DNA of 64,000 bases from Candidatus Amesbacteria bacterium RIFCSPLOWO2_01_FULL_48_25 (lineage in GTDB: Bacteria; Patescibacteriota; Microgenomatia; CAZETR01; Amesbacteraceae): contig MEXN01000005.1 of assembly GCA_001773695.1 (NCBI GenBank), positions 139,316 through 203,315 of the forward strand, written 5' to 3'. Position 1 is the first letter of the stretch. Each line of letters opens with the position of its first letter. The translations under genes and the position numbers were made by a program. The notes beneath the pieces were generated by a model. It saw only the letters and a program-made list of their open reading frames with translations, was not told where the DNA came from and searched no databases. Positions 212 to 39,233 of the stretch are shown piece by piece.

Positions 212-601
212 TTAATCAAAGCGTTGGGGAAAGAGGCGGATTATGGCCTTGACGAAGCCTGGAAGCCGATCCCAATCTTGGTATCCATCGATGATGGCAT
301 CCATGATAGCCGGAGTGGCTTGGGCGACAATTTGATCTAATTCACGGTCGGGGAGGTGGTCTATTATTCTCTGTTTACCCGTGTCTAGTCTCATAGGATA
401 TTGTCCAGGCAGATTGTGATGGATTCTCATAAAAGGGATACCCGAATCTTCTGGTACTTCAGCGCAGGTTATGAGTCCTGAAGCCTCTGGAAGACCGTTT
501 TTCGCCAACGGTTTTTTTAAATCAATTTTTAAGTAGTGGATTTTTCGGTCAGGTGCAGACATATTATGTTTGAATTTATTCTCTGATCGGCCGGAAGTCA
601 A
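212..601 (-). CDS. Hypothetical small protein immediately upstream of gyrB (position matches YaaB/DUF721-like genes in dnaA-gyrB regions; not recognisable by motif)
   Basis: 129-aa ORF on the same strand as gyrB. No recognisable motif; the assignment rests on context only. Confidence 0.35.
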   Translation of the reverse strand: MTSGRSENKFKHNMSAPDRKIHYLKIDLKKPLAKNGLPEASGLITCAEVPEDSGIPFMRIHHNLPGQYPMRLDTGKQRIIDHLPDRELDQIVAQATPAIMDAIIDGYQDWDRLPGFVKAIIRLFPQRFD

Positions 602-1199
602 GGTTGAGAGCCAGGTGGTCTATGACGAGTTTGACGTTGCAGTTGGATTTAAGGAATTTTCTACACTCCGTGAGTAGGGAATATAACGCCCCCTCTGATC
701 CCCCTCTTAAATTAAGAGGGGGACGTAAGGGGGAGTTATTTAACGAGGCGTGGATGTAATACTCTATTTCATCTAGGAATTTTAAGGCCGTTTCGCGGGT
801 GAAGGATTGGGAGTCTAAAATTTTGAGGCGGTCCCCTACTCCGGCAGAAATAAGTTGCGGAATATAAGACGCATAGGACGAATTGGACGTATAGGGAGAA
901 GAAATGATTTGAACACGGGAGAGGATGGTGGGGAGGAGAGTGTCAGGGTACGAAGTAACAAGATAAATGAGGGAATTGCCGGGGGGCTCTTCTAGGGTTT
1001 TTAACAAGGCGTGTTGGGCAGGGAGAGTCAGCTTTTCGGCGGCGTAAATTATGACGGTATTGTGACTCCCTAAGGACTTTCGGGATAGGAAAGTTTGAAT
1101 TTGACGAACCTCTTCAATGCCTATTGATGTGTCGGGGGTAACTTTAAGAGTATCTGGACTGTCGGGAAGGTCAAGGACGCTGGTTAGGAAGGCGTGCAT
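576..1199 (-). CDS. holB: DNA polymerase III delta-prime-like clamp-loader subunit (short form, no Walker A); start chosen at the MHAFL Met so it does not overlap pilB
   Basis: Motif AEKLTLPAQHALLKTLEEPP...LPTILSRVQ is typical of HolB/clamp-loader delta-prime. The ORF-track start at 1376 would overlap pilB. Confidence 0.55.
   Translation of the reverse strand: MHAFLTSVLDLPDSPDTLKVTPDTSIGIEEVRQIQTFLSRKSLGSHNTVIIYAAEKLTLPAQHALLKTLEEPPGNSLIYLVTSYPDTLLPTILSRVQIISSPYTSNSSYASYIPQLISAGVGDRLKILDSQSFTRETALKFLDEIEYYIHASLNNSPLRPPLNLRGGSEGALYSLLTECRKFLKSNCNVKLVIDHLALNLDFRPIRE
700..722. repeat. Second copy of the CCCCCTCTTAA-N-TTAAGAGGGGG palindrome, embedded in-frame in the holB coding region (flanked by additional C5/G5 blocks)
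   Basis: ccccctcttaaattaagaggggg with cccctctgatc upstream and acgtaagggggag downstream. Confidence 0.6.
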
Positions 1200-1217: not shown

Positions 1218-2969
1218 ATGCCTGCCCAGAGAATTGGCGGAAGTGGTGATGTGGAATCCGCGGCGATTGTTGAAGTGTTGGTTCGGGATGGGAAGATAAC
1301 GGCGGAGCAGGCCAAAAGAGCAAACGACTCTTTTGTGACTACAGGTGTACCGGCGACTGCATTTTTGTTGCAACAAAAAATTGTCCGAGTGGAGGATGTG
1401 GTGGCGGCCCGGGCGAAGTATTACAACGTTCCGTTCTTGCGCCTTACTGAGACCGCGGTTTCGCCGGTGGCCTTGGGGTATGTGGACAAAGGTTTGGCGG
1501 CCCGATACCAGCTATTACCATTTAACTATGACAATGTGAAGCAGGAGTTGTCGGTGGCGATGGCCAACCCGGTGGACCTGGCTGCGATCGAGTTTTTGGA
1601 GAAGAAAACCGGAATGAGGATCAAGCCGTTTGCGGCCATACCGGCCGAGGTGGCAGAGGCGGTGGAGACAAGATATGAACAGACGTTGACGACTGAGGTG
1701 ACGGCGGCGCTTAAAGAGGCGGGAGGAGCGGCTGGAGAGGAAGTAAAGACGATAAATATCAGGAAGGTGGGAGAGTTTATTCGGGAGGCGCCCATTGCTA
1801 AGATTGTGACGACGATATTGGAATTTGCTATTAAATCCCGGGCGTCAGATGTGCATATTGAACCGTTGGAGGACAGGACGCGAGTGCGGTACCGGATTGA
1901 CGGGATCTTGCATGAGAAGTTGGTATTGCCCAAAAAAATCCATGATTCGTTGGTGTCGAGGATCAAGATTTTGTCGGATATGAAGATCGATGAGAGACGG
2001 ATTCCCCAGGACGGGAGGTTTAACTTCCAGACGGATACGGAGGAAGTGGACCTGAGGATATCGACGTTGCCGACGGTGCATGGGGAGAAAGTGGTGATGC
2101 GGTTACTTAAAAAAACCGGCGGAGTGCCGACTTTGGTTGAGTTGGGACTTCGGGGGCGGGCCTTGAAAAACCTGGAAGAAGCAGTTTTGCGGCCGCACGG
2201 GATTATTCTGGCTACAGGACCTACCGGATCGGGAAAAACCACGACTTTGTATTCGCTTTTGTCGCGAATTAATACCATTAAAGTCAACGTGGTGACTTTG
2301 GAGGATCCGGTGGAATATCAGATTGGCGGGGTGAACCAGGTGCAAATAAATCCCCAGGCGGGGCTGACGTTTGCCTCTGGGTTAAGATCGTTTTTGCGGC
2401 AAGACCCGAATGTGATCATGGTGGGAGAGATTCGGGACGAGGAGACGGTGGAGCTGGCGGTTCAGGCGTCACTCACCGGTCACTTGGTGTTTTCCACGCT
2501 GCACACTAATTCATCGGCCGGGGCACTGCCGCGGATGCTGGACATGCACGCGGAGCCGTATTTGCTGGCGTCTACTATCACGGCCATTGTGGGTCAGCGG
2601 GTATGCCGCCAGGTGTGCGGTGTGTGCAAAAAACCGTATGAACCGGCGCCGGAAGTGGTTATGGATATGAAGAAAGTGTTGGGGAAGCTATGGACTCCTT
2701 CGACAAGCTCAGGGCAAGCGGTGCAGTTGTATAGAGGGGCTGGGTGTAGCGAGTGCGCTAATACCGGCTATCGGGGGCGGGTCGGGATTTATGAGGTTCT
2801 GCCGGTGACGGAAAAGATAGGCCGTTTGATACTTGAACACGCGCCAGCATCGGAAATCGAGAAGTTGGCTATAGACGAAGGGATGATTACCATGAAACAA
2901 GATGGCTACTTGAAAGTGGTGGAAGGAATAACTACTATTGAAGAGGTGCTGCGGGTGGCGCAAGAATAA
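1218..2969 (+). CDS. pilB: Type IV pilus assembly ATPase PilB (GspE family)
   Basis: Walker A GPTGSGKTT, TGHLVFSTLHTN, tetracysteine motif CGVCKKPY...CSECANTGYRGR, and N-terminal GSPII-like domains. Confidence 0.85.
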   Translation: MPAQRIGGSGDVESAAIVEVLVRDGKITAEQAKRANDSFVTTGVPATAFLLQQKIVRVEDVVAARAKYYNVPFLRLTETAVSPVALGYVDKGLAARYQLLPFNYDNVKQELSVAMANPVDLAAIEFLEKKTGMRIKPFAAIPAEVAEAVETRYEQTLTTEVTAALKEAGGAAGEEVKTINIRKVGEFIREAPIAKIVTTILEFAIKSRASDVHIEPLEDRTRVRYRIDGILHEKLVLPKKIHDSLVSRIKILSDMKIDERRIPQDGRFNFQTDTEEVDLRISTLPTVHGEKVVMRLLKKTGGVPTLVELGLRGRALKNLEEAVLRPHGIILATGPTGSGKTTTLYSLLSRINTIKVNVVTLEDPVEYQIGGVNQVQINPQAGLTFASGLRSFLRQDPNVIMVGEIRDEETVELAVQASLTGHLVFSTLHTNSSAGALPRMLDMHAEPYLLASTITAIVGQRVCRQVCGVCKKPYEPAPEVVMDMKKVLGKLWTPSTSSGQAVQLYRGAGCSECANTGYRGRVGIYEVLPVTEKIGRLILEHAPASEIEKLAIDEGMITMKQDGYLKVVEGITTIEEVLRVAQE

Positions 2970-2970
2970 A

Positions 2971-4029
2971 ATGACTATCCAACAACTATTGAAATATGTA
3001 ATTGAAAAGAAGGCGTCGGATTTACACTTGCTGGTGGGATCGCCGCCAATTGTGCGGATAGACGGAGTGTTGGCACCGGCGGATGGGGAGAAACCGCTTA
3101 ACGTATCCGAGGTGGAGCAACTGTTGCATGGAGTAATGTCGGTGGAGCAGAAGCAGATATTATCTGTAAACAAGGAATTGGATTTTTCGTTTACCTTGGG
3201 GGAACACGCCAGGTTTAGGGCGAATGTGTATCATCAGAAAAACACTGTGGCTGGGAGTTTCCGGTTTATTCCGGTGGAGGTGGCGGGTATCGATTCCTTA
3301 GGTTTACCGGCGATTATTCGCAATTTGACCCGGCTGAAGCAGGGATTTGTGCTGGTGACCGGGCCGACTGGTCAGGGAAAGTCGACGACGCTGGCTGCCA
3401 TGATTGACGAGATAAATAAGACCAGGGCGGTGCATGTGGTAACGATTGAGGACCCGATCGAGTATGTATACACTCCGATTAAGTCCATTGTCTCCCAACG
3501 AGAGATTCACGGAGACACGCATTCTTGGGAGGTGGCGCTGCGATCAGTGCTGAGGGAAGACCCGGATGTGGTACTGATCGGCGAGATGCGCGATTTTGAG
3601 ACGATCGCGGCGGCTTTGACTATTGCGGAGACGGGACACTTGGTATTGGCTACACTGCACACTAATTCGGCGGCACAGACGATCGATCGGATTGTAGACG
3701 TATTCCCGGAAAACCAGCAGCCGCAAATTAGGCAGCAGTTGTCGGGAAGCCTAGAGGCGGTATTTTCTCAGAGGCTCGTGCCTTTGATTGCCGGGGGGAG
3801 GACGGTGGCTTCCGAGGTCATGCTGGGGACGGCGGCGGTTCGGACGGCAATTCGGGATGGGCGGACGCATACGATTGATAACGTGATAATGACATCGGCG
3901 GAATATGGAATGTTTACCCTGGAGGCGTCTTTGGCGCAGTTGGTAAAGTCCGGAAAAATTTCTGAGGATGTGGCGCTGTCTTATTCGTTTAGGCCGGCTG
4001 ATCTGACGCGGTTTCTTAAAGGAGGATAG
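2971..4029 (+). CDS. pilT: Twitching motility / pilus retraction ATPase PilT
   Basis: GPTGQGKSTT Walker A and HLVLATLHTNSAAQTIDRI; about 350 aa, typical of PilT. Start placed at the MTIQQLL Met. Confidence 0.85.
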   Translation: MTIQQLLKYVIEKKASDLHLLVGSPPIVRIDGVLAPADGEKPLNVSEVEQLLHGVMSVEQKQILSVNKELDFSFTLGEHARFRANVYHQKNTVAGSFRFIPVEVAGIDSLGLPAIIRNLTRLKQGFVLVTGPTGQGKSTTLAAMIDEINKTRAVHVVTIEDPIEYVYTPIKSIVSQREIHGDTHSWEVALRSVLREDPDVVLIGEMRDFETIAAALTIAETGHLVLATLHTNSAAQTIDRIVDVFPENQQPQIRQQLSGSLEAVFSQRLVPLIAGGRTVASEVMLGTAAVRTAIRDGRTHTIDNVIMTSAEYGMFTLEASLAQLVKSGKISEDVALSYSFRPADLTRFLKGG

Positions 4030-4038
4030 GGGTTTGAC

Positions 4039-5241
4039 ATGAGGTATAAGTACCGGGCGAGAAATGAACTGGGGCAACCGGTAGCGGGAGTGGTGGAGGC
4101 GATAACGGCGTTGTCCGCGGCGGGGGTGTTGCGGGAGCAAAAGCTGACGCCGATTTCTATTAATGAGACCGGAGGAGGAGTGAATTTGGGTAATGTGTTT
4201 TCGATGTTTGGGAAAGTGGGGACGGCCGAGCTGGCGACGTTTACCCGGCAGCTGTCGACGATGATTACCGCAGGGTTGCCTCTAACCGATGCACTGAATT
4301 TATTGAAAGCCCAGTCCGGAAGAGCGTTTTCGCCCATTATCGGGGCGGTAATGGCGGATGTGCAGGGCGGGGTGTCACTTTCTGGGGCTTTGGGCAAACA
4401 CCCGCAGGTTTTTTCCAAAGTTTATATCTCTTTGGTTCGGGCGGGGGAGGCGGCAGGGGTGATGGAGACGATTATGAACAGGCTGGCGGATACTTTGGAA
4501 AAAGGGCGGGAGTTCCGATCTAAAGTGATTGGGGCAATGATTTATCCGATAATAATCCTGATCGGTATGGTGGCCGTTGTGATTATCATGGTGGTGGTAG
4601 TTATCCCGAAGCTGACCGCGTTGTATGAGGACTTTGATGCCGAGTTACCGGCGGCAACTCAGGTACTGATAGCGGTATCGGATTTTGCTATAAATTACTG
4701 GTGGCTGGCTATTGCAATGGGGGTGGGAGCGGTATTTGGGATCGTTGCTTTTTTACGAACTCCAAATGGCCGGGAGATTAAAGACAGACTGGTAGTCAAG
4801 ATTCCAGTATGGGGGGAACTGGTGCAAAAAGTGATGCTGACCGAGGTGACGCGGACTTTGGGATTATTGGTTTCGGCGGGAGTGTCCATCGTCGAGGCGC
4901 TAACGATCGTTTCCGAGGCGGCGGGAAACGTGATTGTAGAACGGGATTTGCGACGGATTTCCCGGCAGGTGGAGAAGGGATTTCCGGTGTCGATTTCTTT
5001 TTCGGAAAGCATGGTGTTTCCGGCAATTGTCGGGCAGATGATAGCCGTGGGTGAGGAAACCGGAAAAATGGACGAGGTACTCACCAAAATGTCTACTTAT
5101 TTCGAGTCCGAATCTGAACAACGGGTTAAAGGCTTGACAACGGCAATTGAGCCAATAATAATAATGGTATTAGCAGTAGGGGTAGGATTTTTGATGTACG
5201 CTGTAGTTATGCCACTTTATAGTATTACGAATAGTTTGTAG
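4039..5241 (+). CDS. pilC: Type IV pilus platform protein PilC (GspF family)
   Basis: 400 aa, two GspF repeats, polytopic membrane protein downstream of pilB/pilT. AGGAGG ribosome-binding site upstream. Confidence 0.85.
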   Translation: MRYKYRARNELGQPVAGVVEAITALSAAGVLREQKLTPISINETGGGVNLGNVFSMFGKVGTAELATFTRQLSTMITAGLPLTDALNLLKAQSGRAFSPIIGAVMADVQGGVSLSGALGKHPQVFSKVYISLVRAGEAAGVMETIMNRLADTLEKGREFRSKVIGAMIYPIIILIGMVAVVIIMVVVVIPKLTALYEDFDAELPAATQVLIAVSDFAINYWWLAIAMGVGAVFGIVAFLRTPNGREIKDRLVVKIPVWGELVQKVMLTEVTRTLGLLVSAGVSIVEALTIVSEAAGNVIVERDLRRISRQVEKGFPVSISFSESMVFPAIVGQMIAVGEETGKMDEVLTKMSTYFESESEQRVKGLTTAIEPIIIMVLAVGVGFLMYAVVMPLYSITNSL

Positions 5242-5273
5242 TTTTTGAAAGGAGGTGAAACCGAAATAAATTT

Positions 5274-5729
5274 ATGACACTATTTAAAAAAGGCCTGCCT
5301 GCCGGCAGGCAAGGTTTCACCCTTATCGAACTACTGGTGACGATAGGTGTCTTGGCAGTGGTTGCGGCGGGAGTAATTGCGACCATTAATCCGCAGCAGA
5401 AGATATTCCAGGCCCGGGACGCGCAGACGCAAAGTGGAGTAGGCCAGATAGCTACCGCTTTACAGTCGTGGGCGGCAGTAAATAATGGGTTATATCCGGC
5501 CGCATTGGCTACTCTGGTTACGGATGGGGAAATGACAGTTTTACCGCCGGCGGCTCCTGGCGCAGGTGGTTGGGTTTACAGTGTGAGTGCAGGTAATGCG
5601 GCTGCAGAGTTGCATTCAAATCTCCAGGCGACTAGGAATTTGGTGGGTGGTGCTCCTTCCTTCTGGTGTTGGAGATCGGCTAGCGGTCTAACAGTGGCTG
5701 TTACAGCAGCATTCGGCTGTGCTCCTTAG
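5274..5729 (+). CDS. pilA: Type IV pilin with class III (prepilin) signal, probable major pilin
   Basis: N-terminus KKGLPAGRQGFTLIELLVTIGVLAVVAAG (G|FTLIE cleavage/methylation motif). Strong SD AAGGAGGTGA upstream. Followed by a strong terminator/attenuator. Confidence 0.7.
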   Translation: MTLFKKGLPAGRQGFTLIELLVTIGVLAVVAAGVIATINPQQKIFQARDAQTQSGVGQIATALQSWAAVNNGLYPAALATLVTDGEMTVLPPAAPGAGGWVYSVSAGNAAAELHSNLQATRNLVGGAPSFWCWRSASGLTVAVTAAFGCAP

Positions 5730-33157: not shown

Positions 33158-33469
33158 TTGGGAAAAACCCACGATTACTTCTTGACTTTCGTCTTTTGTT
33201 CGGTTACAAATGAGTTGATGGAGACCGTTAATGAAAGAATTGTGGTGGGGGTGGAGTTTGCGCTGGGGAAAGTAACGCCGCGGTGGTTTGGGTGGAGAGG
33301 GAGAGAGTATCAAGTAAAAAGAGTGCCGATGGTTTTTGAAAGAAAGGACGGAGGGAGGAGATACATCTGTTTTAACGTGACTACTGACGGCATGATAGCT
33401 GAACTTTCTTTAGACACGCAGAATTTTCAGTTTTCAATTACCAATTTCCAACCTATAACCCCCTCTTAA
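33158..33469 (+). CDS. Hypothetical protein
   Basis: 103-aa ORF. Its stop codon lies inside the 23-bp palindrome. Confidence 0.3.
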   Translation: MGKTHDYFLTFVFCSVTNELMETVNERIVVGVEFALGKVTPRWFGWRGREYQVKRVPMVFERKDGGRRYICFNVTTDGMIAELSLDTQNFQFSITNFQPITPS

Positions 33470-33481
33470 TCTAAGAGGGGG
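33459..33481. repeat. 23-bp perfect palindrome ccccctcttaatctaagaggggg, 7 nt upstream of the dinB ATG; second copy at 700-722 inside holB
   Basis: 10-11-bp arms with a 1-2-nt centre; seen in the sequence at both loci. Confidence 0.6.
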
Positions 33482-33488
33482 AACCGAT

Positions 33489-34658
33489 ATGAAAACGATA
33501 TTACATTTGGATATGAATAGCTACTTCGCGACGGCGGAGCAGCAGGCGAATCCTATTTACCGGGGTAGGCCGGTGGGAATAATTAAGGCTGAAGGCCGCG
33601 GGTGTGTGATTGCCGCTTCTGTCGAGGCCAAAAAGTTTGGAGTGAGAACAGGGTGTACGACCTGGGAAGCGAAGAAAATGTGCCCTTGGATTATTTTTGT
33701 GCCGTCGGATATGGATAAATATTTTGCATTGACGAACCGGATGATAAAAATTTTGGCTGATTACTCCCCCACTTTGGAAGCGTTCTCGATAGATGAATGT
33801 TTTATAGATGTGACGGAGACGCAAAAATTTTTTGGCGGCGGGATGTATCAAATGGCACTGGAGATAAAATCCCGGGTGAGAGAGGAGTTGGGAGAATGGA
33901 TGAAGTGTTCGATCGGGGTCTCATTTACCAAATTATTGGCCAAACTGGCCTCCGAAATGAACAAGCCGGATGGATTGACCTTTTTGACACCGGATAACTA
34001 TTTGGATGAGACGAAATGTGTAGCGGTATCGGAGGTGTGCGGAATAGGATATTCAAGAACAAAATACCTAAACTCTCGAGGGGCTTATACACTTGGGCAG
34101 GCCCGGAAATTGGACTTGCCCCGAGAGATTTGGGAGTTGGTTTGGCTGCGAAGTAATGATGAACTGACGACGATTGATGATTTGGAGCCGGCGAAGTCGG
34201 TGTCCCGAACATACACTACGTTTCAAGCCACAAGCCACAAATCCCAAGTCACAAAGTTAATTAGAAATTTGGTAGAGGAGGCGGCAGCGAAGCTCCGAGA
34301 GATGGGGATGGCGGGGAGGACGTTTTGCCTATCGCTGGATTCTTTCTGGGCCAGGAAGACCGTCGAAGCTCCGACAAGCGATCCGCTAGTTATTTTTGAT
34401 TTGTTAAATAGGGAGTATGAGAAAAATCCGATAGTGAATATAAGGCAAGCGGGAGTGTGGATTAGTAACTTAATGTTTAATACTCAATGTTTAATGTTTA
34501 ATAACAGGCGGCAACTACTTGATGCGACAGATAAGGTTAATCAAAAATTTGGCTTGTTTACGCTGTATCCGGCGACACTACTGGGTACCGAATTAGTTCG
34601 GCCCGAGGTGACGGGGTATTTAGGGGATAAATACTATCGGTTTGCAGGTGATCGATGA
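33489..34658 (+). CDS. dinB: DNA polymerase IV (Y-family translesion polymerase)
   Basis: MKTILHLDMNSYFATAEQ..., SIDECFIDVT catalytic region, little-finger domain. Confidence 0.85.
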   Translation: MKTILHLDMNSYFATAEQQANPIYRGRPVGIIKAEGRGCVIAASVEAKKFGVRTGCTTWEAKKMCPWIIFVPSDMDKYFALTNRMIKILADYSPTLEAFSIDECFIDVTETQKFFGGGMYQMALEIKSRVREELGEWMKCSIGVSFTKLLAKLASEMNKPDGLTFLTPDNYLDETKCVAVSEVCGIGYSRTKYLNSRGAYTLGQARKLDLPREIWELVWLRSNDELTTIDDLEPAKSVSRTYTTFQATSHKSQVTKLIRNLVEEAAAKLREMGMAGRTFCLSLDSFWARKTVEAPTSDPLVIFDLLNREYEKNPIVNIRQAGVWISNLMFNTQCLMFNNRRQLLDATDKVNQKFGLFTLYPATLLGTELVRPEVTGYLGDKYYRFAGDR

Positions 34659-34717
34659 ATATGGTATAATATGTATGCTATCGCAAGATAGTGGGAACCT
34701 CAGCAATGGTGTTCCCG

Positions 34718-34749
34718 AAAAACCCGTTGTCGCAAGATGACGGGTTTTT
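34718..34749. terminator. Bidirectional rho-independent terminator between convergent dinB and the 34749..35093 gene
   Basis: aaaaacccgttgtcgcaagatgacgggttttt. Two additional small hairpins immediately upstream (ctatcGCAAgatag, gggaacc...ggtgttccc). Confidence 0.6.
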
Positions 34750-35093
34750 CATTTGGGTTGGGATTTATTGGCCTCGGTTTGCCTTTCGAGAATTTCGAGG
34801 GGAAATTGATAGTCCCTGTACCTGATTTCGGTAATTTTGTCGCCGATAACTTTGTTGACTTTAAGAGATGCAGCCCAATACATCGGAAGAATGAGAATAT
34901 TTGGGCAGAGCCATAAATAGCTTTCTTCCATGCGAGTGACAGAATAGGCGAAGGTGGCGAGGCTCAAAGTGATGGCAGATGCCCAGAGGAATGTACGGAG
35001 AGCTTCGTATGGCCTTTTGTTGGCCAGATATCTTTCCCACGACCTTTTTTTGTTCGGGTCGATGATCAAGTAGTCAGGCATCTCAGGATACAC
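34749..35093 (-). CDS. Hypothetical membrane protein
   Basis: 114-aa ORF with two hydrophobic segments. Confidence 0.35.
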   Translation of the reverse strand: MYPEMPDYLIIDPNKKRSWERYLANKRPYEALRTFLWASAITLSLATFAYSVTRMEESYLWLCPNILILPMYWAASLKVNKVIGDKITEIRYRDYQFPLEILERQTEANKSQPK

Positions 35094-35733: not shown

Positions 35734-35815
35734 TGCCTCCGAGAGGACTCGAACCTCTAAGGGTTACCCCACAGGTTCCTAAAACCTGCGCGTATACCAA
35801 TTCCGCCACGGAGGC
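35734..35815 (-). tRNA. tRNA-Leu(TAG), class II with long variable arm
   Basis: GCCTCCG...CAGGT-TTTAGGA-ACCTG...GGTTCGAGTCC...CGGAGGC-A. Confidence 0.85.
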
Positions 35816-35942
35816 GTGAGGTTATTTTAGCATTGCCTTTGGTGCAACCAAAAAACCCCGGCTCCTGCCCGATGCCGAGGCTTTTTGATAAAATTCTGCC
35901 GCCAGGCCTTTCGACTCAGCCGCAGAATGTGGATGAATTGTA

Positions 35943-36700
35943 CTATGGGGTGGACTGCTTGTCAACCCGCTTGCATAAGATGAAGATACTGGGCCCGAAA
36001 TAGACTTTGGCTAGCGGACTCTGGGATATGGATTCTAGATAATTGAGAATGGGTGGGGGAATGAACCGTTTGACCGTTGGAGAGCGGAAGTTGGAGACGG
36101 ATAAAAGTCTCAAAGGCTTGAAATTGCAAAGGCTTAAGGTATTGAGGATGGACTGGGGATAATGGTTGACGAAGGGGATAGTGTGGCGGCGGATATTGGC
36201 TAGACTCCTTTTTTCGATTGGGGCAGTGGAAACAGGAAGACCGGTAATCAGGCTTTTTACTCTGGACATGAAGTGGTAGGAGTTGGCAAATTCTAGAAGG
36301 AGGTGGCCCCCGGGTTTTAGTAGTCGGTGGATTTCTAACAGGGCGGGAGTAGGATTTGGCAAGTGGTGGAGGACGCGAACAAGAACTACTAGGTCTGCGC
36401 TTGTCCGGGGGAGGGTGGTGCGCTGGATGTTGCCAGAGGTGATATTTAAGTTTGGCTGACCCTTGAGAAACCGGCGGGCGACTTGTCTTTGCTTGGCTGA
36501 TGGCTCGACTAAAGTAATGTGGTGGGAAAATTGGGATAAAGTGGGTATCAGGCGGCCGTATCCTCCACCTAGGTCGTAAACTTTGTTGAAGCGTAGAGAT
36601 TTGAGGAGTTTACTAATAGCGGTGACTTCTGATTGGTGCTCGTACTGCCTGCTTAACCAGTATTTGGGGTAGGAGAAGCGGGGGTCGTCGTAGTGGGTCA
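35943..36700 (-). CDS. Class I SAM-dependent methyltransferase
   Basis: VYDLGGGYGRLI (motif I) and LKPGGHLLL (post-I). Confidence 0.7.
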
Positions 36701-36702
36701 TG

Positions 36703-37284
36703 TTACTGGAGGTCGGAGAGGAATTGGGAAATGGCCTTGGCCCATGGACCACCTTTCTCCACCGACGGCGGGGTATATTTGGCCATTATTTCTTCGGGTG
36801 TATTTAAGCCATGGTCGATGTAATTTTTTTTGAGAGTGCTGGCTACGGTTTCGATGGCTTGGGGATAGTTATCGAAGCGGGTAACTTTGTCGCCGTATAT
36901 GCCAAAACCCCAGCAATTATGGGAGTCGGCGGGAATTTTTTTACACAGATTGGATTCTTGTTGGGCAATAGCTACCAGTAGTCTGTAATCAAGAAGATAT
37001 TTGTCCGAGATTTCTACCAGGTATTCGGAGTGAGGTTCTAGTGGGGAGTCGTACTCGTGTAAATACCGTCTGATAATTACTGGACGGGCATCACGGACGG
37101 AGAAACTGGCGAAGGTGGACGGAGCAGGGTCGGTAGAGGTAGCAATAACGGCGGGATTTTGGGTTGACAGGGAGAGAACTTGGGGAGGGGTGGAGAAGGG
37201 CTGGGTGTAGAGAATGTAGGCGCTGGTTATAAGGACCACTGGAGTGAGTGTAAAAAAAGAAATCAGGAGAAATGGTTTTGACAT
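36703..37284 (-). CDS. Secreted lysozyme-like / lytic transglycosylase-like protein (putative)
   Basis: N-terminal signal/TM. Segment LLVAIAQQESNLCKK...NCWGFGIYG resembles the SLT catalytic region (E-S motif). Confidence 0.4.
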   Translation of the reverse strand: MSKPFLLISFFTLTPVVLITSAYILYTQPFSTPPQVLSLSTQNPAVIATSTDPAPSTFASFSVRDARPVIIRRYLHEYDSPLEPHSEYLVEISDKYLLDYRLLVAIAQQESNLCKKIPADSHNCWGFGIYGDKVTRFDNYPQAIETVASTLKKNYIDHGLNTPEEIMAKYTPPSVEKGGPWAKAISQFLSDLQ

Positions 37285-37292
37285 ATTATTTG

Positions 37293-37363
37293 AGCGGCTA
37301 ACGGGAATCGAACCCGTGTCATCTCCTTGGCAAGGAGAAGTTCTACCATTGAACCATAGCCGC
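37293..37363 (-). tRNA. tRNA-Gly(GCC)
   Basis: GCGGCTA-TG-GTTC-AATGGTA-GAAC-T-TCTCC-TTGCCAA-GGAGA-TGAC-ACGGG-TTCGATT-CCCGT-TAGCCGC-T. Confidence 0.85.
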
Positions 37364-37416
37364 GAATTTTCTTCCTTTTTGATTTTACCAAATATGTGTG
37401 TCTTGGTGGTTTTTGT

Positions 37417-38070
37417 TCATATATAGAGCACGTATTTAAACATGAGCCAGAAATGGGAAAAACTGGCGGCGATGACAAAAAGATGAAACAGTTCGTGCAT
37501 TCCAAACCAGCTCTTCTGGGGTAAAACCCGACCTAGAATGAAAGGTATGACCCCCAGGGTGTATAGGGTGCCTCCCCACATGAGCCACCAGAGGCCGCCC
37601 AGTGGCAACGATTTGATAAGGACCGGTAAGGCAATGATCCCGAGCCACCCTAGAGCCACATAGGGGAGAGGGATGAGCCAGGCTTTCTCGTTCTTGACGG
37701 CGATCTTGAGCGCGATTCCGATAATCGCCAAGCCCCAGACAACGCTAAAGAGGCTCCATCCCCATCCTCTTTGTGGCAGGACCAACAGGATTGGCGTGTA
37801 TGTACTGGCGATGAAAATATAAATCATTGAGTGGTCGATGATTCGAAAAATTTCTTTGGCCCAATGCGTTTTCGGAATGAGATGATAAATGGTGCTGATG
37901 AGATAAAGGAGGATAAGCCCTGAACCAAAAATAGAGAATCCAACAACGTGACGAGTCTGACCGTAGTGGGCAGCAAAGACGACCAGGAGCACGAGTCCAG
38001 CAATCGAAAGAAGAAATCCGATAAAAGCCGTGAGGCTACTAACCGGTTCACTGTTGCGCAGGAGATTCAT
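37417..38070 (-). CDS. Hemolysin III / PAQR family membrane protein
   Basis: 7-TM protein with STIYHLIP...DHSMIY...HELFHLFV motifs. ATG is 3 nt after the tRNA-Leu(TAA) 3' end. Confidence 0.8.
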   Translation of the reverse strand: MNLLRNSEPVSSLTAFIGFLLSIAGLVLLVVFAAHYGQTRHVVGFSIFGSGLILLYLISTIYHLIPKTHWAKEIFRIIDHSMIYIFIASTYTPILLVLPQRGWGWSLFSVVWGLAIIGIALKIAVKNEKAWLIPLPYVALGWLGIIALPVLIKSLPLGGLWWLMWGGTLYTLGVIPFILGRVLPQKSWFGMHELFHLFVIAASFSHFWLMFKYVLYI

Positions 38071-38073
38071 TTG

Positions 38074-38158
<85 letters not shown>

Positions 38159-38166
38159 TTTTTTAG

Positions 38167-38240
38167 GTGGAGCCAACAGGACTCGAACCTGTGACCTTCT
38201 CTGTGTAAAAGAGACGCTCTACCAACTGAGCCATGGCTCC
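38167..38240 (-). tRNA. tRNA-Val(TAC)
   Basis: GGAGCCA-TG-GCTC-AGTTGGTA-GAGC-G-TCTCT-TTTACAC-AGAGA-AGGTC-ACAGG-TTCGAGT-CCTGT-TGGCTCC-A. Confidence 0.85.
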
Positions 38241-38250
38241 AGATTTTTTG

Positions 38251-38333
38251 TGCGGCGAGAGGGAGTTGAACCCACACGTCCTTGCGGACACTGGCTCCTG
38301 AAGCCAGCGCGTCTGCCATTTCGCCATCGCCGC
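38251..38333 (-). tRNA. tRNA-Leu(CAG)
   Basis: GCGGCGA...CTGGC-TTCAGGA-GCCAG...long variable arm...GGGTTCAACTCCC...TCGCCGC-A. Confidence 0.85.
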
Positions 38334-38400
38334 TCTGGTTGTATTTTATCATTTGTATTAGGGATGATTTGATTTGTCTTGGGGTATAATTGACAGGTAA

Positions 38401-38484
38401 GCCGGGATGCTGAAACTGGTAGACAGGCATGCTTGAGGGGCATGTGTCAGCAATGGCGTGGAGGTTCGAGTCCTCTTCCCGGCA
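38401..38484 (+). tRNA. tRNA-Leu(GAG), preceded by a ggTATAAT -10 element
   Basis: GCCGGGA...CATGC-TTGAGGG-GCATG...long variable arm...GGTTCGAGTCC...TCCCGGC-A. Confidence 0.85.
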
Positions 38485-38510
38485 CATTAATTAGTATAAT
38501 TTTGTTTCCC

Positions 38511-38583
38511 GCAGCGGTAGCCAAGGTGGTCAAGGCACCTGTCTGAAGAACAGGCCATGCAGGTTCGACTCCTGCCTGCTGCA
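38511..38583 (+). tRNA. tRNA-Phe(GAA), preceded by a tagTATAAT -10 element
   Basis: GCAGCGG...CCTGT-CTGAAGA-ACAGG-CCAT-GCAGG-TTCGACT-CCTGC-CTGCTGC-A; 3-bp D-stem with a long D-loop. Confidence 0.75.
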
Positions 38584-38603
38584 CAAGTGAAACGGTTGCT
38601 TGC

Positions 38604-39137
38604 GTGCTGTGGAGTGTGTATTATGAAAAGTGGAGTATGAGGCCGACGGATGAGATTGTTAAAGCAAGTTTGGGTTGGGTAAATGTGGGGTTGGGGTTAT
38701 TTATTGGGGTGATTGTGGCGGGGGTGGGAGCGTTTTTGTGGGTATTTAGGGATAAATTGCGAGATGCGAGAGCATTACTGACAATTGCAGCATTGTTGAT
38801 CTCTCTGCCCCTGGGGGTAAGGTTGATTTTGGAAAGAACCAGTTTCAGAAACATTGCGGCGGAGGAGCTGAGTATCGTGGCGGTGGAGATAAACCAAACT
38901 ACGGCCGGTGAGCTGGTAATTTATCTGACGTTGTCGCGGCCGGCGGTGGCTTATATGGAGTATAAGCCGTCTGGTTTGAATAAGAGCACTTTGGTCTTTG
39001 CCTTGGGCAAGGTGGAACCAAGAATCGGGCATACATTTGTGCTGAGCGACGTGGGGCAGGGTGGGGAGGCGGTTTTTGTGCTGAATGGGCAGAAAGTACT
39101 GTGGCAAGGGGTGCCGCTGGTGATTCCGGGGAGGTGA
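38604..39137 (+). CDS. Hypothetical membrane protein (start uncertain: GTG 38604 or ATG about 38637)
   Basis: N-terminal TM (WVNVGLGLFIGVIVAGVGAFLWVF) and a second TM. 20 nt after tRNA-Phe, no SD. Confidence 0.4.
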   Translation: MLWSVYYEKWSMRPTDEIVKASLGWVNVGLGLFIGVIVAGVGAFLWVFRDKLRDARALLTIAALLISLPLGVRLILERTSFRNIAAEELSIVAVEINQTTAGELVIYLTLSRPAVAYMEYKPSGLNKSTLVFALGKVEPRIGHTFVLSDVGQGGEAVFVLNGQKVLWQGVPLVIPGR

Positions 39138-39158
39138 AGGAGTAAAATATGGGAGTGG

Positions 39159-39233
39159 CGGAGACTAGTTCATCGGTAGAACGCTCGGTTTGGGACCGAG
39201 AGGTGCAGGGTTCAATTCCCTGGTCTCCGACCA
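39159..39233 (+). tRNA. tRNA-Pro(TGG), CCA encoded
   Basis: CGGAGAC-TA-GTTC-ATCGGTA-GAAC-G-CTCGG-TTTGGGA-CCGAG-AGGTG-CAGGG-TTCAATT-CCCTG-GTCTCCG-A-CCA. The ORF-track ATG at 39149 lies inside or upstream of this tRNA. Confidence 0.85.

Follow-up and report, generated by a model that had tools for sequence, protein, structure and literature searches.

Judged from sequence comparison, the two 23-bp palindromes in the window (the whole 64-kb stretch of DNA analysed) are very probably copies of one family of short, dispersed and horizontally spread palindromic elements, and not a regulatory site shared by repair genes. The family is apparently selfish. One of its copies in the window is a truncated element directly upstream of dinB, and the other is the centre of a complete element inserted in-frame in holB (Table 1).

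The initial annotation described a perfect 23-bp palindrome occurring twice, and both occurrences are found where it placed them, but only one has the perfect form. Copy 2 (700-722), CCCCCTCTTAA-A-TTAAGAGGGGG, is a perfect 11+1+11 palindrome lying within the holB ORF and encoding ..NNSPLRPPLNLRGGSEGALY.., as described. Copy 1 (33459-33481), CCCCCTCTTA-ATC-TAAGAGGGGG, is not a perfect 23-bp palindrome of the form originally written, because it is built as 10+3+10 and has one mismatch to that pattern. Its placement was described correctly, with overlap of the upstream ORF stop and an end 7 nt before the dinB ATG. When up to three mismatches were permitted the core matched exactly twice in the window and not at all in 100 dinucleotide-preserving shuffles of it, in line with the earlier statement that the pair is far above chance. 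The low number of copies, only two in the 64-kb window, counts against a dispersed family.

The C/G blocks noted on either side of copy 2 are real, but the extent of the structure had been underestimated. Copy 2 forms the central part of an imperfect 57-bp palindrome whose 28-nt arms are 82% complementary and whose length corresponds to exactly 19 codons. Both copies fold far more strongly than shuffled sequences. As RNA, copy 2 (mRNA strand) reaches -40.1 kcal/mol (z -7.0 vs shuffles) and copy 1 reaches -17.2 kcal/mol (z -3.65), and the corresponding DNA folds are -20.3 and -10.3 kcal/mol. A search of the whole window against Rfam 15 at the gathering threshold returned tRNAs only, and around copy 2, with E values up to 10 accepted, only generic sub-threshold hairpin matches were obtained.

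Table 1. Palindromic elements and their host genes in the window.
Feature	Position	Strand	Sequence or basis
Complete short-form element, 57 bp = 19 codons, in-frame in holB	683..739	.	ATAAC-GCCCCCTC-tgat-core-acgtaa-GGGGGAG-TTAT
Left outer box TAACGCCCCC (family consensus TAAC[T/G]CCCCC)	684..693	.	Seen in the sequence; recurs beside the core family-wide
Core hairpin copy 2, CCCCCTCTTAA-A-TTAAGAGGGGG	700..722	.	Sequence and mismatch scan
Right outer box GGGGGAGTTA (family consensus GGGGG[A/C]GTTA, often then TGA)	729..738	.	Seen in the sequence
holB, DNA polymerase III delta-prime-like, 207 aa, insertion host	576..1199	-	Pfam DNA_pol3_delta2, E 9.8e-21
Core hairpin copy 1, element stub	33459..33481	.	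TAAC (33456-33459) abuts/overlaps the core; right outer box absent
TAA stop of the upstream small ORF, inside the hairpin 5' arm	33467..33469	+	Seen in the sequence
GAGGGGG, Shine-Dalgarno-like, part of the 3' arm, 7 nt before the dinB ATG	33475..33481	+	Alignment with element-free relative
Small conserved ORF upstream of dinB, 83 aa (counted from the M at residue 21 of a 103-aa ORF starting at 33158)	33218..33469	+	Orthologs P0122-P0124
dinB, Y-family DNA polymerase, 389 aa	33489..34658	+	Pfam IMS E 1.7e-42, plus IMS_C

The pattern CCCCCTCTTA-NNN-TAAGAGGGGG matched at least 120 genome loci, which contain 136 or more sites. With its 20 specified bases, about 0.5 chance matches would by our own arithmetic be expected in the 596 Gb concerned. 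The core is present in at least five phyla, the carriers including Nitrospirota, Desulfuromonadales/Geobacter, Dehalococcoidia, Pseudomonadota and many CPR groups, and also in 25 IMG/VR viral contigs with 33 sites, where up to four copies occur in 11 kb. No match to PLSDB plasmids or INPHARED phages was obtained by BLAST with the 71-nt region of the element, a result to which the low-complexity filter may contribute.

The short form of the element spans about 50-57 bp and reads TAAC(T/G)CCCCC, 2-6 nt, CCCCCTCTTA-NNN-TAAGAGGGGG, 2-6 nt, GGGGG(A/C)GTTA. The outer boxes are common across the family and serve as terminal inverted repeats, and the element forms a hairpin over its full length. In longer forms there is a second hairpin, CCTCCCCTTA..TAAGGGGAGG. 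Perfect palindromes are frequent among the copies, and a G.A or T.C mismatch is fixed in one class. A TAAC abutting the core, as in copy 1, is also seen in L081, L148 and L161. An ATG following the terminal GTT was considered as a start codon supplied by the element, and was rejected as such. Since most of these ATGs open only tiny ORFs, GTTATGA is regarded as element consensus, although some DUF559 genes, as well as hsdR in L023, do start at it.

The genomic context of the family is diverse. The 148 flanking ORFs represent, among the matches listed, 137 Pfam families that are mostly housekeeping, and no integrase or transposase recurs among them. Flanking gene pairs were co-directional in 56 cases, convergent in 12 and divergent in 10, against a background of 414, 110 and 95, and the family inserts between genes regardless of their orientation. 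Occupancy of orthologous sites varies: the holB loop carries an insert in about 15 of 120 orthologs, and the junction upstream of dinB is empty in L136/L138, holds a stub in the window and a different element in L200.

DUF559 was the only recurrent neighbour, accounting for four of the 148 flanking ORFs among the matches listed. Five of the six DUF559 genes in the 120 or more loci directly abut the core, and the genes lie between the GTTA end and the TAAC end of elements. Of 35 DUF559 loci sampled without reference to the palindrome, 17 carried perfect C/G-rich hairpins with a pyrimidine arm and a purine arm within about 200 nt, ten of them on both sides of the gene and with arms closely similar or identical within the locus. 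All 31 hairpins in these flanks had the pyrimidine 5'/purine 3' polarity and none the reverse, and their density was 1.7 per kb as compared to 0.03 per kb in the window, which serves as a crude background. No DUF559 gene was found in the 64-kb window, nor in 257 kb of palindrome-bearing viral loci. DUF559 is an abundant orphan family, and its only PDB match was the structural-genomics entry 3HRL ("endonuclease-like protein"), which comes without functional data.

Because DUF559 is the only recurrent neighbour and is itself flanked by such hairpins, it is a candidate mobiliser. The elements may, as a tentative suggestion, spread by or together with genes for this Vsr-like PD-(D/E)XK endonuclease; inverted copies of hairpin plus box enclose these genes, an arrangement comparable to that of REPs around RAYT genes. 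In the wider and equally tentative form of this proposal, DUF559 proteins would mobilise, or act as homing enzymes for, a very large cross-phylum superfamily of C/G-rich hairpins with pyrimidine 5' and purine 3' arms, and the palindromes in the window would be footprints of their activity. DUF559 could also target the hairpins, or hitch-hike on them, rather than move them.

The main alternative to mobilisation by DUF559 is an unseen HUH/Y1 transposase (RAYT or IS200/IS605 TnpA) that occurs once per genome and moves REP- or PATE-like elements as single-stranded hairpins, with DUF559 as a neighbour or secondary invader. IS200/IS605 ends and REPs consist of a hairpin plus a short conserved motif, a design resembled by the present hairpins, in which TAAC lies on both strands at a fixed distance of 8-12 nt from the foot. 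A single-copy mobiliser would also escape a sample of random element loci, and the viral loci carry elements without DUF559. Nevertheless, we find this explanation doubtful: no Y1 transposase recurred among the 148 flanking ORFs (top 25 families listed), and no RAYT gene flanked by inverted hairpins was seen among the flanking ORFs for which matches were listed. REPs commonly lie outside genes, with a bias towards gene 3' ends, and REP families are normally genus-specific, whereas the elements described here show no orientation bias, are intragenic at about 25 of 136 sites and include one variant that spans phyla. The likeness to REP/REPIN-RAYT systems lies in the dispersed short hairpins, in the small nuclease-type gene bracketed by inverted hairpins of its own type, and in a hairpin sequence that is lineage-specific while the design is conserved. 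In contrast to those systems, the bracketed gene encodes DUF559, with its Vsr-like fold, and not an HUH/Y1 protein, no GTAG-type 5' motif is present, and the copies are not limited to extragenic 3' regions.

The intragenic copies follow a strict rule. Among the matches listed, long ORFs enclose about 25 of the 136 sites. All of these sites are read in one and the same frame and encode the peptide N-S/T-P..PPLxLRGG..G-E/G-L/V; inside genes only the single stop-free frame survives. All ten in-frame hosts checked against Pfam were real domain-bearing genes, most of them with domains on both sides of the insert. Transketolase (two inserts), MurB, Mur ligase, MnmA, LeuRS (two), Fmt and holB are among the hosts. 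The frequency was highest in the genome-reduced CPR, where about 10 of the 16 sites with readable taxonomy lie inside genes.

In holB, copy 2 is situated well within the coding sequence, at 124 nt from the stop. The 57-bp copy adds 19 codons to a variable loop that is disordered in the predicted structure and connects two helices of the C-terminal domain: insert residues ~155-167 have pLDDT below 50 and are positioned between helices 135-154 and 168-184. The database holds a 207-aa protein that is 100% identical to the HolB of the window by local alignment; just after the insert it reads ALC and the window reads ALY.

Among the HolB orthologs the insert occupies the same loop in all carriers, is of two hairpin types and is patchily distributed. 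In 12 of the 15 insert-bearing sequences the nearest insert-free relative was closer than the nearest insert-bearing relative of the same type. The insert of L132 is a hybrid of the two hairpin types, and the left half of the holB element, spacer included, recurs at an unrelated intergenic site in L096. The element itself is 93-100% identical between species (57/57 positions identical to the window in L127, 56/57 in L128 and 53/57 in L130), whereas the 90-nt flanks are only 52-60% identical. A protein feature that had arisen by convergence would have kept the peptide without the palindrome; the opposite was observed, the nucleotide palindrome being the conserved part. Together with the predicted disorder of the loop and the use of the same frame in unrelated genes, these results bear out the original suggestion of an in-frame insertion of a MITE/REP-like element in holB.

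Neither among holB orthologs nor among relatives of the dinB junction was a filled/empty pair of near-identical sequences found. The empty holB allele P0027 is 94% identical outside the loop but diverged in the DNA around the site, and the 90%-identity clusters of holB had no insert-free member. The flanks, (CA)TAAC..GTTA(TG), are palindromic themselves, and a TA/TTA target-site duplication is therefore indistinguishable from the inverted repeat, the empty sites being too diverged. All 57 nt, the unpaired spacers included, are almost perfectly conserved between hosts whose proteins share 61-66% identity. Neutral selfish DNA by itself would hardly account for this pattern, which could reflect a function at the nucleotide level or repeated re-acquisition.

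This conservation, far exceeding that of the flanking codons, is also what would be expected if the hairpins were kept for a role at the RNA level (mRNA stabiliser, RNase III site or translational coupling) and repeatedly recruited rather than selfish. As RNA the hairpins have a very high stability. At 19 of 169 family sites a long ORF ends within the core, in its 5' arm or loop, and at 15 of the 169 an ORF starts 3-16 nt after the core. On the other hand, the elements show no strand or orientation preference relative to genes, and copies are found in coding loops without an obvious RNA role. No T-tail follows the hairpin (GGGGGAACCGATATG is found instead of a T-run after copy 1), and the terminator scan made no call. 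Moreover, identical sequences in unrelated phyla and viral contigs favour transfer over convergence, and we consider retention for an RNA-level role improbable.

Considerably less probable still is a relationship to integrons, in which the elements would be solitary attC sites (CALIN) inserted by an integrase at secondary GTT sites, with the TAAC..GTTA ends as R''/R' boxes. The boxes of attC sites follow the consensus RYYYAAC/GTTRRRY, with extrahelical bases in the hairpin. There is a resemblance in the imperfect palindromes of 50-57 bp or more with pairs of inner and outer boxes and ..TAAC/GTTA.. ends, in the fixed mismatch given by a common asymmetric box class (TAACG...AGTTA), and in the cassette-like position of DUF559 between GTTA and TAAC ends. 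However, the bases outside AAC/GTT (TCAT/ATGA) break RYYY/RRRY, and many copies are perfect palindromes without extrahelical bases. The neighbours are housekeeping operons and not cassette arrays, and in-frame copies within essential genes are not a feature of integrons. Among the matches listed, no integron integrase was present in ~0.8 Mb around 136 sites when six-frame translations of all loci were searched by phmmer with an IntI1 query, used as a probe only. The sole tyrosine recombinase was Xer-like and scored 137 bits, compared to the 265-bit cut-off of TIGR02249.

At the dinB junction the small ORF has orthologs (P0122-P0124) that are 65-67% identical and always located upstream of dinB, and its match to DUF6504 is weak and sub-threshold. 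In the window its C-terminus is unlike those of the orthologs and extends into copy 1, whose 5' arm provides the stop codon. The closest syntenic locus with the small ORF and dinB (L136/L138) has no element; there the small ORF and dinB share 22 nt, and the sequence at their junction lacks structure (z +0.38). The truncated copy, consisting of the core and the abutting TAAC, sits where the relative has the small ORF overlapping dinB. In L200 the same junction is occupied by a different full palindromic element of the same style, ACCTCACC..CCCCTCTCCTAAATTTAGGAGAGGGG..GGTGAGGT. A metagenome scan for close relatives of dinB recovered two distant loci only, lacking both the small ORF and the palindrome.

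The initial annotation had interpreted copy 1 as an operator or RNA hairpin regulating dinB and had drawn attention to the fact that dinB and holB are both replication/repair genes. This does not agree with the distribution of the core, and since the core is widely dispersed beside unrelated neighbours, absent from L136/L138 and replaced in L200, the repair theme common to the two hosts is a coincidence. A dedicated cis-regulatory site (dimeric-repressor operator or RNA hairpin) co-regulating dinB and holB would fit the strong dyad, its position 7 nt before the dinB ATG over GAGGGGG and the two replication/repair hosts, but is extremely improbable given the same core beside or inside 137 unrelated families in at least five phyla, a holB copy deep within the gene and not at a promoter, and dinB loci, near and distant, without the core. 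The promoter scan upstream of dinB gave no convincing promoter and did not call the palindrome. Copy 1 is not a LexA box, as previously stated for the Gram-positive type: by inspection it matches neither of the LexA consensus sequences CGAAC-N4-GTTCG and CTGT-N8-ACAG, and the site is absent in relatives.

A dispersed element may still affect its surroundings, and for copy 1 a local side effect on dinB translation is possible, since its 3' arm contains the Shine-Dalgarno-like GAGGGGG. This heptamer aligns with GGAGG of the element-free relative and is fully paired in the predicted mRNA hairpin. At about -17 kcal/mol this hairpin would mask the dinB Shine-Dalgarno sequence, but would be melted, and the site freed, by a ribosome that ends translation at the TAA of the 5' arm. 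Translation of dinB would in that case remain coupled to the upstream ORF, albeit by a new route.

Among described repeats, close analogues are the Rickettsia palindromic elements (RPEs; Ogata et al. 2000, 2002), which according to the account in PMC10969869 are ~100-150 bp long, comprise ten sequence families and are restricted to Rickettsia. The same account places them in intergenic regions and in-frame in many housekeeping genes, where they encode a conserved peptide at surface-compatible positions; the elements encode no transposase. The present elements are likewise short palindromes located between genes and in-frame in unrelated housekeeping genes, with a conserved peptide and no transposase of their own. 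As judged from that description they are set apart by host, length and composition, being 50-57 bp long and rich in C/G homopolymers, with a single 23-bp core that is identical in viral contigs and at least five phyla. MITEs such as Correia/NEMIS, ERIC, BOX and RUP are also small, multicopy and non-autonomous with terminal inverted repeats, and can be co-transcribed, alter the expression of neighbours and occasionally fuse to ORFs. In contrast to these MITEs, the whole element is here a near-perfect hairpin and not a pair of terminal inverted repeats around a unique core. No parent IS with the same ends was identified, the only bracketed gene being DUF559, which is not a known transposase. Literature searches on the core sequence, the encoded peptides, repeats or mobility of DUF559 and in-frame palindromes in Patescibacteria returned only RPE and MITE background, and no description of this palindrome family.

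To our knowledge, in-frame protein-coding palindromes have so far been regarded as a peculiarity of Rickettsia. The family described here is an analogous but much shorter element that uses one frame in essential genes (clamp loader, aminoacyl-tRNA synthetases, Mur enzymes and transketolase). The 23-bp core occurs in distant phyla and in viral contigs, and its horizontal spread is therefore unusually wide for so small a repeat. The elements account for odd P/G-rich loops and C-terminal tails in many predicted proteins, and their dyads are not operators, which calls for caution by annotators and in searches for regulons. In the window, a selfish insertion would have changed the way in which dinB is joined to the conserved partner ORF that precedes it. 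The association with DUF559 offers a testable lead to the function of that family. If DUF559 does mobilise the hairpins, the two would form a nuclease-based parallel to REPs and their RAYT genes, a function would be assigned to DUF559, and the RPE-like in-frame palindromes of CPR and other phyla would be accounted for.

Exactly two sequences in the 64-kb window match the core palindrome with at most three mismatches, one inside holB (copy 2) and one at the dinB start (copy 1), and no match was found in 100 dinucleotide-preserving shuffles of the window. Both copies reported in the initial annotation are present, but copy 1 departs from the palindrome as it was written there. The TAA stop of the small upstream ORF lies within the 5' arm of copy 1, and the dinB ATG follows 7 nt past its 3' end. 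The predicted RNA folds are -40.1 kcal/mol for copy 2 (z -7.0 vs shuffles) and -17.2 kcal/mol for copy 1 (z -3.65), and the predicted DNA folds are -20.3 and -10.3 kcal/mol, respectively. The + strand of the window has an extremely high GC skew throughout (+0.18 to +0.33 per 4-kb bin, with one exception), and contains GGGGG 179 times vs CCCCC 29 times.

Location of features in the window and at two genomic loci with the core pattern (L023, L047).
Feature	Location	Strand	Sequence	Remarks
Core, copy 2	700-722		CCCCCTCTTAA-A-TTAAGAGGGGG	perfect 11+1+11 palindrome
Core, copy 1	33459-33481		CCCCCTCTTA-ATC-TAAGAGGGGG	10+3+10, one mismatch to the initially annotated pattern
Full element around copy 2	683-739		ATAACGCCCCCTC-tgat-core-acgtaa-GGGGGAGTTAT	imperfect palindrome, 57 bp = 19 codons
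holB ORF, host of copy 2	576-1199	minus		Pfam DNA_pol3_delta2
dinB with preceding small ORF	33158-34658			small ORF of ~82-85 aa, conserved in all close relatives (L136, L138, L200)
Inverted repeat just past dinB	34717-34750		GAAAAACCCGT..ACGGGTTTTTC	11-bp, perfect; called terminator-like by scan; unrelated to the element family
tRNA gene cluster (~35.7-39.2 kb)	35734-39230	both		8 of the 12 tRNA genes of the window
Exception in GC skew	52-56 kb	plus		skew ~0.01
L047, MurB-containing long ORF	3641-5314	minus		also N-terminal PDDEXK_3 nuclease domain, Pfam E 1.5e-29
L023, tandem array	2700-4210			four ~220-bp units in a type I restriction-modification operon, located between hsdS and hsdR

A scan of species-representative genomes with the pattern CCCCCTCTTA-NNN-TAAGAGGGGG gave at least 120 loci, where ~0.5 matches are expected by chance (20 specified bases, 596 Gb). 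Hosts among the matches listed are Nitrospirota, Desulfuromonadales/Geobacter, Dehalococcoidia, Pseudomonadota, Syntrophia-like bacteria and many CPR groups, including Uhr-, Gottesman-, Doudna- and Saccharibacteria, Microgenomates and Wirthbacteria; 25 viral contigs from IMG/VR also contain the core, with up to 4 copies per 11 kb. Comparison of the flanks revealed a short form of ~50-57 bp, (CA)TAAC(T/G)CCCCC - 2-6 nt - core - 2-6 nt - GGGGG(A/C)GTTA(TGA), often a near-perfect palindrome without interruption, and a long form of 100-130 bp with an extra hairpin, CCTCCCCTTA-NNN-TAAGGGGAGG, between the left box and the core. In the core, the 3-nt loop varies freely in sequence across the family. 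One frequent class, to which the holB copy belongs, has asymmetric boxes (TAACG...AGTTA, reverse complement TAACT...CGTTA) and thereby a fixed G.A or T.C mismatch. All hairpin types observed obey the same polarity rule: in the genomic loci (L001-L120), perfect C/G-rich hairpins whose 5' arm is all pyrimidine and whose 3' arm is all purine number 267, against 3 of reverse polarity, and in the viral loci (L139-L163) the numbers are 85 and 2. No Rfam family matches the element, and neither its sequence nor the encoded peptide was found in a literature search.

The flanking genes are nearly all housekeeping genes, for example those for ribosomal protein S2, ThiG, TsaD, RuvB and HrcA. Among the matches listed, 148 ORFs flanking element sites represent 137 Pfam families, and no integrase or transposase recurs among them. 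Intergenic copies exhibit no bias towards co-directional, convergent or divergent gene pairs compared with background. About a quarter of the sites listed (25-30 of 136) are within long ORFs, all read in one frame as N-S/T-P-x-PPL-x-(L/V/I)-RGG-x-G-(E/G)-(L/V). When ORFs with an in-frame copy were checked against Pfam, 10 of 10 were genuine domain-bearing genes, most with a domain match on either side of the insert; among the hosts are transketolase (two inserts), MurB, a Mur ligase, MnmA, LeuRS (two genomes), a radical-SAM protein and Fmt. By our own count of loci with readable taxonomy, ~10 of 16 CPR sites are intragenic vs roughly one in eight elsewhere. The behaviour matches that of Rickettsia palindromic elements, which insert in frame into genes, as described in PMC10969869. 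The L047 ORF combining MurB and PDDEXK_3 may have arisen by read-through from two genes, or it may include a further small nuclease gene lodged beside element copies.

The HolB insert, NSPLRPPLNLRGGSEGALY, occupies a length-variable loop in the ortholog alignment, and ~15 of the best 120 holB orthologs have an element-derived insert at exactly that loop. Eleven are of the window type (PPLxLRGG) and four of a second type (TPSRxSPPNLGGDHRG), encoded by another hairpin, TCTCCCCCTAA-T-TTAGGGGGAGA, with boxes of its own; the insert at the holB locus L132 is a hybrid, the left half of the first type being replaced by the second. Distribution of the inserts is patchy: 12 of the 15 carriers are closer to the nearest insert-free ortholog than to the nearest same-type carrier. 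The window-like P0001, for instance, shares 81% identity with the insert-free P0002 and at most 64% with other carriers. The 57-nt element of the window is identical at 57, 56 and 53 positions to those of the holB loci L127, L128 and L130, respectively, whereas the 90 nt of coding sequence on either side are just 52-60% identical. Therefore the nucleotide palindrome itself is conserved, not merely the peptide, which favours an in-frame insertion of a small element in holB, as initially suggested, over a conserved peptide without palindrome. The left half, including the unpaired spacer TTACGT, is also present in L096, there at an unrelated intergenic site. In an AlphaFold2 model of HolB (mean pLDDT 79) insert residues ~155-167 lie between helices 135-154 and 168-184 of the C-terminal domain, within a stretch of pLDDT <50, a modeled position as expected of a tolerated surface loop. 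The ortholog P0004 has a separate second insert, ..SPPKLGGDSEAKRGGE.., near its N-terminus (residues ~8-30), which looks like another hairpin-derived peptide elsewhere in the same protein.

Individual copies may have a function at the RNA level. Neutrality leaves the striking conservation of the entire 57 nt in holB unexplained. On the other hand, absence of strand bias and sequence identity across phyla speak for a family that is itself selfish or mobile at the DNA level. No filled/empty pair close enough to define insertion junctions was found, so that transposition itself is a candidate process.

DUF559, a Vsr-like PD-(D/E)XK endonuclease family whose sole solved relative in a PDB search is the uncharacterised 3HRL, is the sole recurrent neighbour (4 of the 148 flanking ORFs among the matches listed), and of the six DUF559 genes present in the 120 loci listed, five directly adjoin a core. 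Inverted copies flank the gene with their boxes towards it: (hairpin + GGGGG.GTTA)-ATG..DUF559..-(TAAC.CCCC + hairpin). We sampled 35 DUF559 loci from viral contigs, picked without regard to the palindrome, for perfect hairpins within ~200 nt whose arms span 7 bp or more, the 5' arm being pyrimidine and rich in C, the 3' arm purine and rich in G. Such hairpins occurred at 17 loci, and on both sides at 10, with arms identical or near-identical per locus and different between loci. The flanks held 31 hairpins of pyrimidine-5'/purine-3' polarity and none of the reverse, at a density of 1.7 per kb vs 0.03 per kb in the window. At L132 the DUF559 gene adjoining holB is flanked by second-type hairpins, the type inside that holB. 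In each unit of the L023 array, a repeat of the hsdS 3' end is combined with a pair of hairpins and the initial bases of a DUF559 gene; an intact DUF559 gene and further hairpin units come after the array. The units are deletion derivatives of a hairpin-flanked DUF559 unit, and the array resembles the outcome of repeated recombination at elements.

DUF559 with its flanking hairpins resembles the REP-RAYT relationship, and is therefore proposed, as a doubtful candidate, as mobiliser of the element. DUF559 could equally well merely target or travel with the hairpins, or a single-copy Y1 transposase located elsewhere in the genomes may move the element. No paper found to mention DUF559 describes the hairpin association. 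Integron attC sites have AAC...GTT ends in common with the element, and DUF559 is placed as a cassette would be, but no integron integrase occurs within ~0.8 Mb around the sites, the sole recombinase found is Xer-like and under the IntI cut-off, the sites lie among housekeeping genes, and extrahelical bases are missing from many copies.

The small ORF preceding dinB has orthologs (P0122-P0124) that are 65-67% identical, with dinB next in every case. It exhibits a weak, sub-threshold DUF6504 match, and its product may be an uncharacterised accessory partner of the Y-family polymerase DinB. In the closest syntenic relatives, L136 and L138, the junction has no palindrome and is unstructured (z +0.38); the 3' end of the small ORF and the start of dinB share 22 nt, and GGAGG lies 8 nt upstream of the dinB ATG. 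The aligned window junction is ~44 nt longer, palindrome included, and the 3' arm GAGGGGG of copy 1 aligns with GGAGG of the relative. Copy 1 is a truncated form with TAAC abutting the core and no right box, a sub-form also found in L081, L148 and L161. At the same junction L200 has a complete element that belongs to a third hairpin type, ACCTCACC-...-CCCCTCTCCTAAA-TTTAGGAGAGGGG-...-GGTGAGGT, where the small ORF stops just upstream of the hairpin and dinB starts ~10 nt past the right box. In three sister lineages the junction therefore is empty, holds a stub, or holds a different family member. The stop/start arrangement is not peculiar to dinB: among the matches listed, a long ORF ends in the 5' arm or loop at 19 of 169 sites, and begins 3-16 nt past the core at 15 of 169.

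Copy 1 had been read as a regulatory site for dinB. A dedicated operator is rejected, being contradicted by the cross-phylum spread, the housekeeping contexts with the same core next to 137 Pfam families, the holB inserts and the palindrome-free junctions of L136 and L138. The lack of a T-run also excludes an intrinsic terminator.

The kind of element is already known from REP, MITE and RPE-like palindromic repeats, among them in-frame "protein-coding palindromes", but the present family appears to be undescribed. It is much shorter than RPEs, has an identical core common to distant phyla and viral contigs, is intragenic especially in CPR bacteria, and is linked with DUF559 and not with a transposase. 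The comparisons confirm and extend the insertion reading initially given for copy 2, and show copies 1 and 2 to be members of a dispersed, horizontally shared palindromic element that lands where genes border on each other and in coding loops that tolerate it, and not a site specific to repair genes. The holB copy would amount to a 19-residue loop that is neutral or of slight cost, together with a strong mRNA hairpin inside the gene. In the dinB mRNA the hairpin would sequester the ribosome-binding GAGGGGG by pairing, and the stem would be covered and opened whenever a ribosome terminates at the TAA in the 5' arm. Initiation at dinB would in that case probably still be coupled to translation of the upstream ORF, in place of the ancestral coupling by overlap. 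Such coupling would be a by-product of the insertion, and not the reason why the element sits there.
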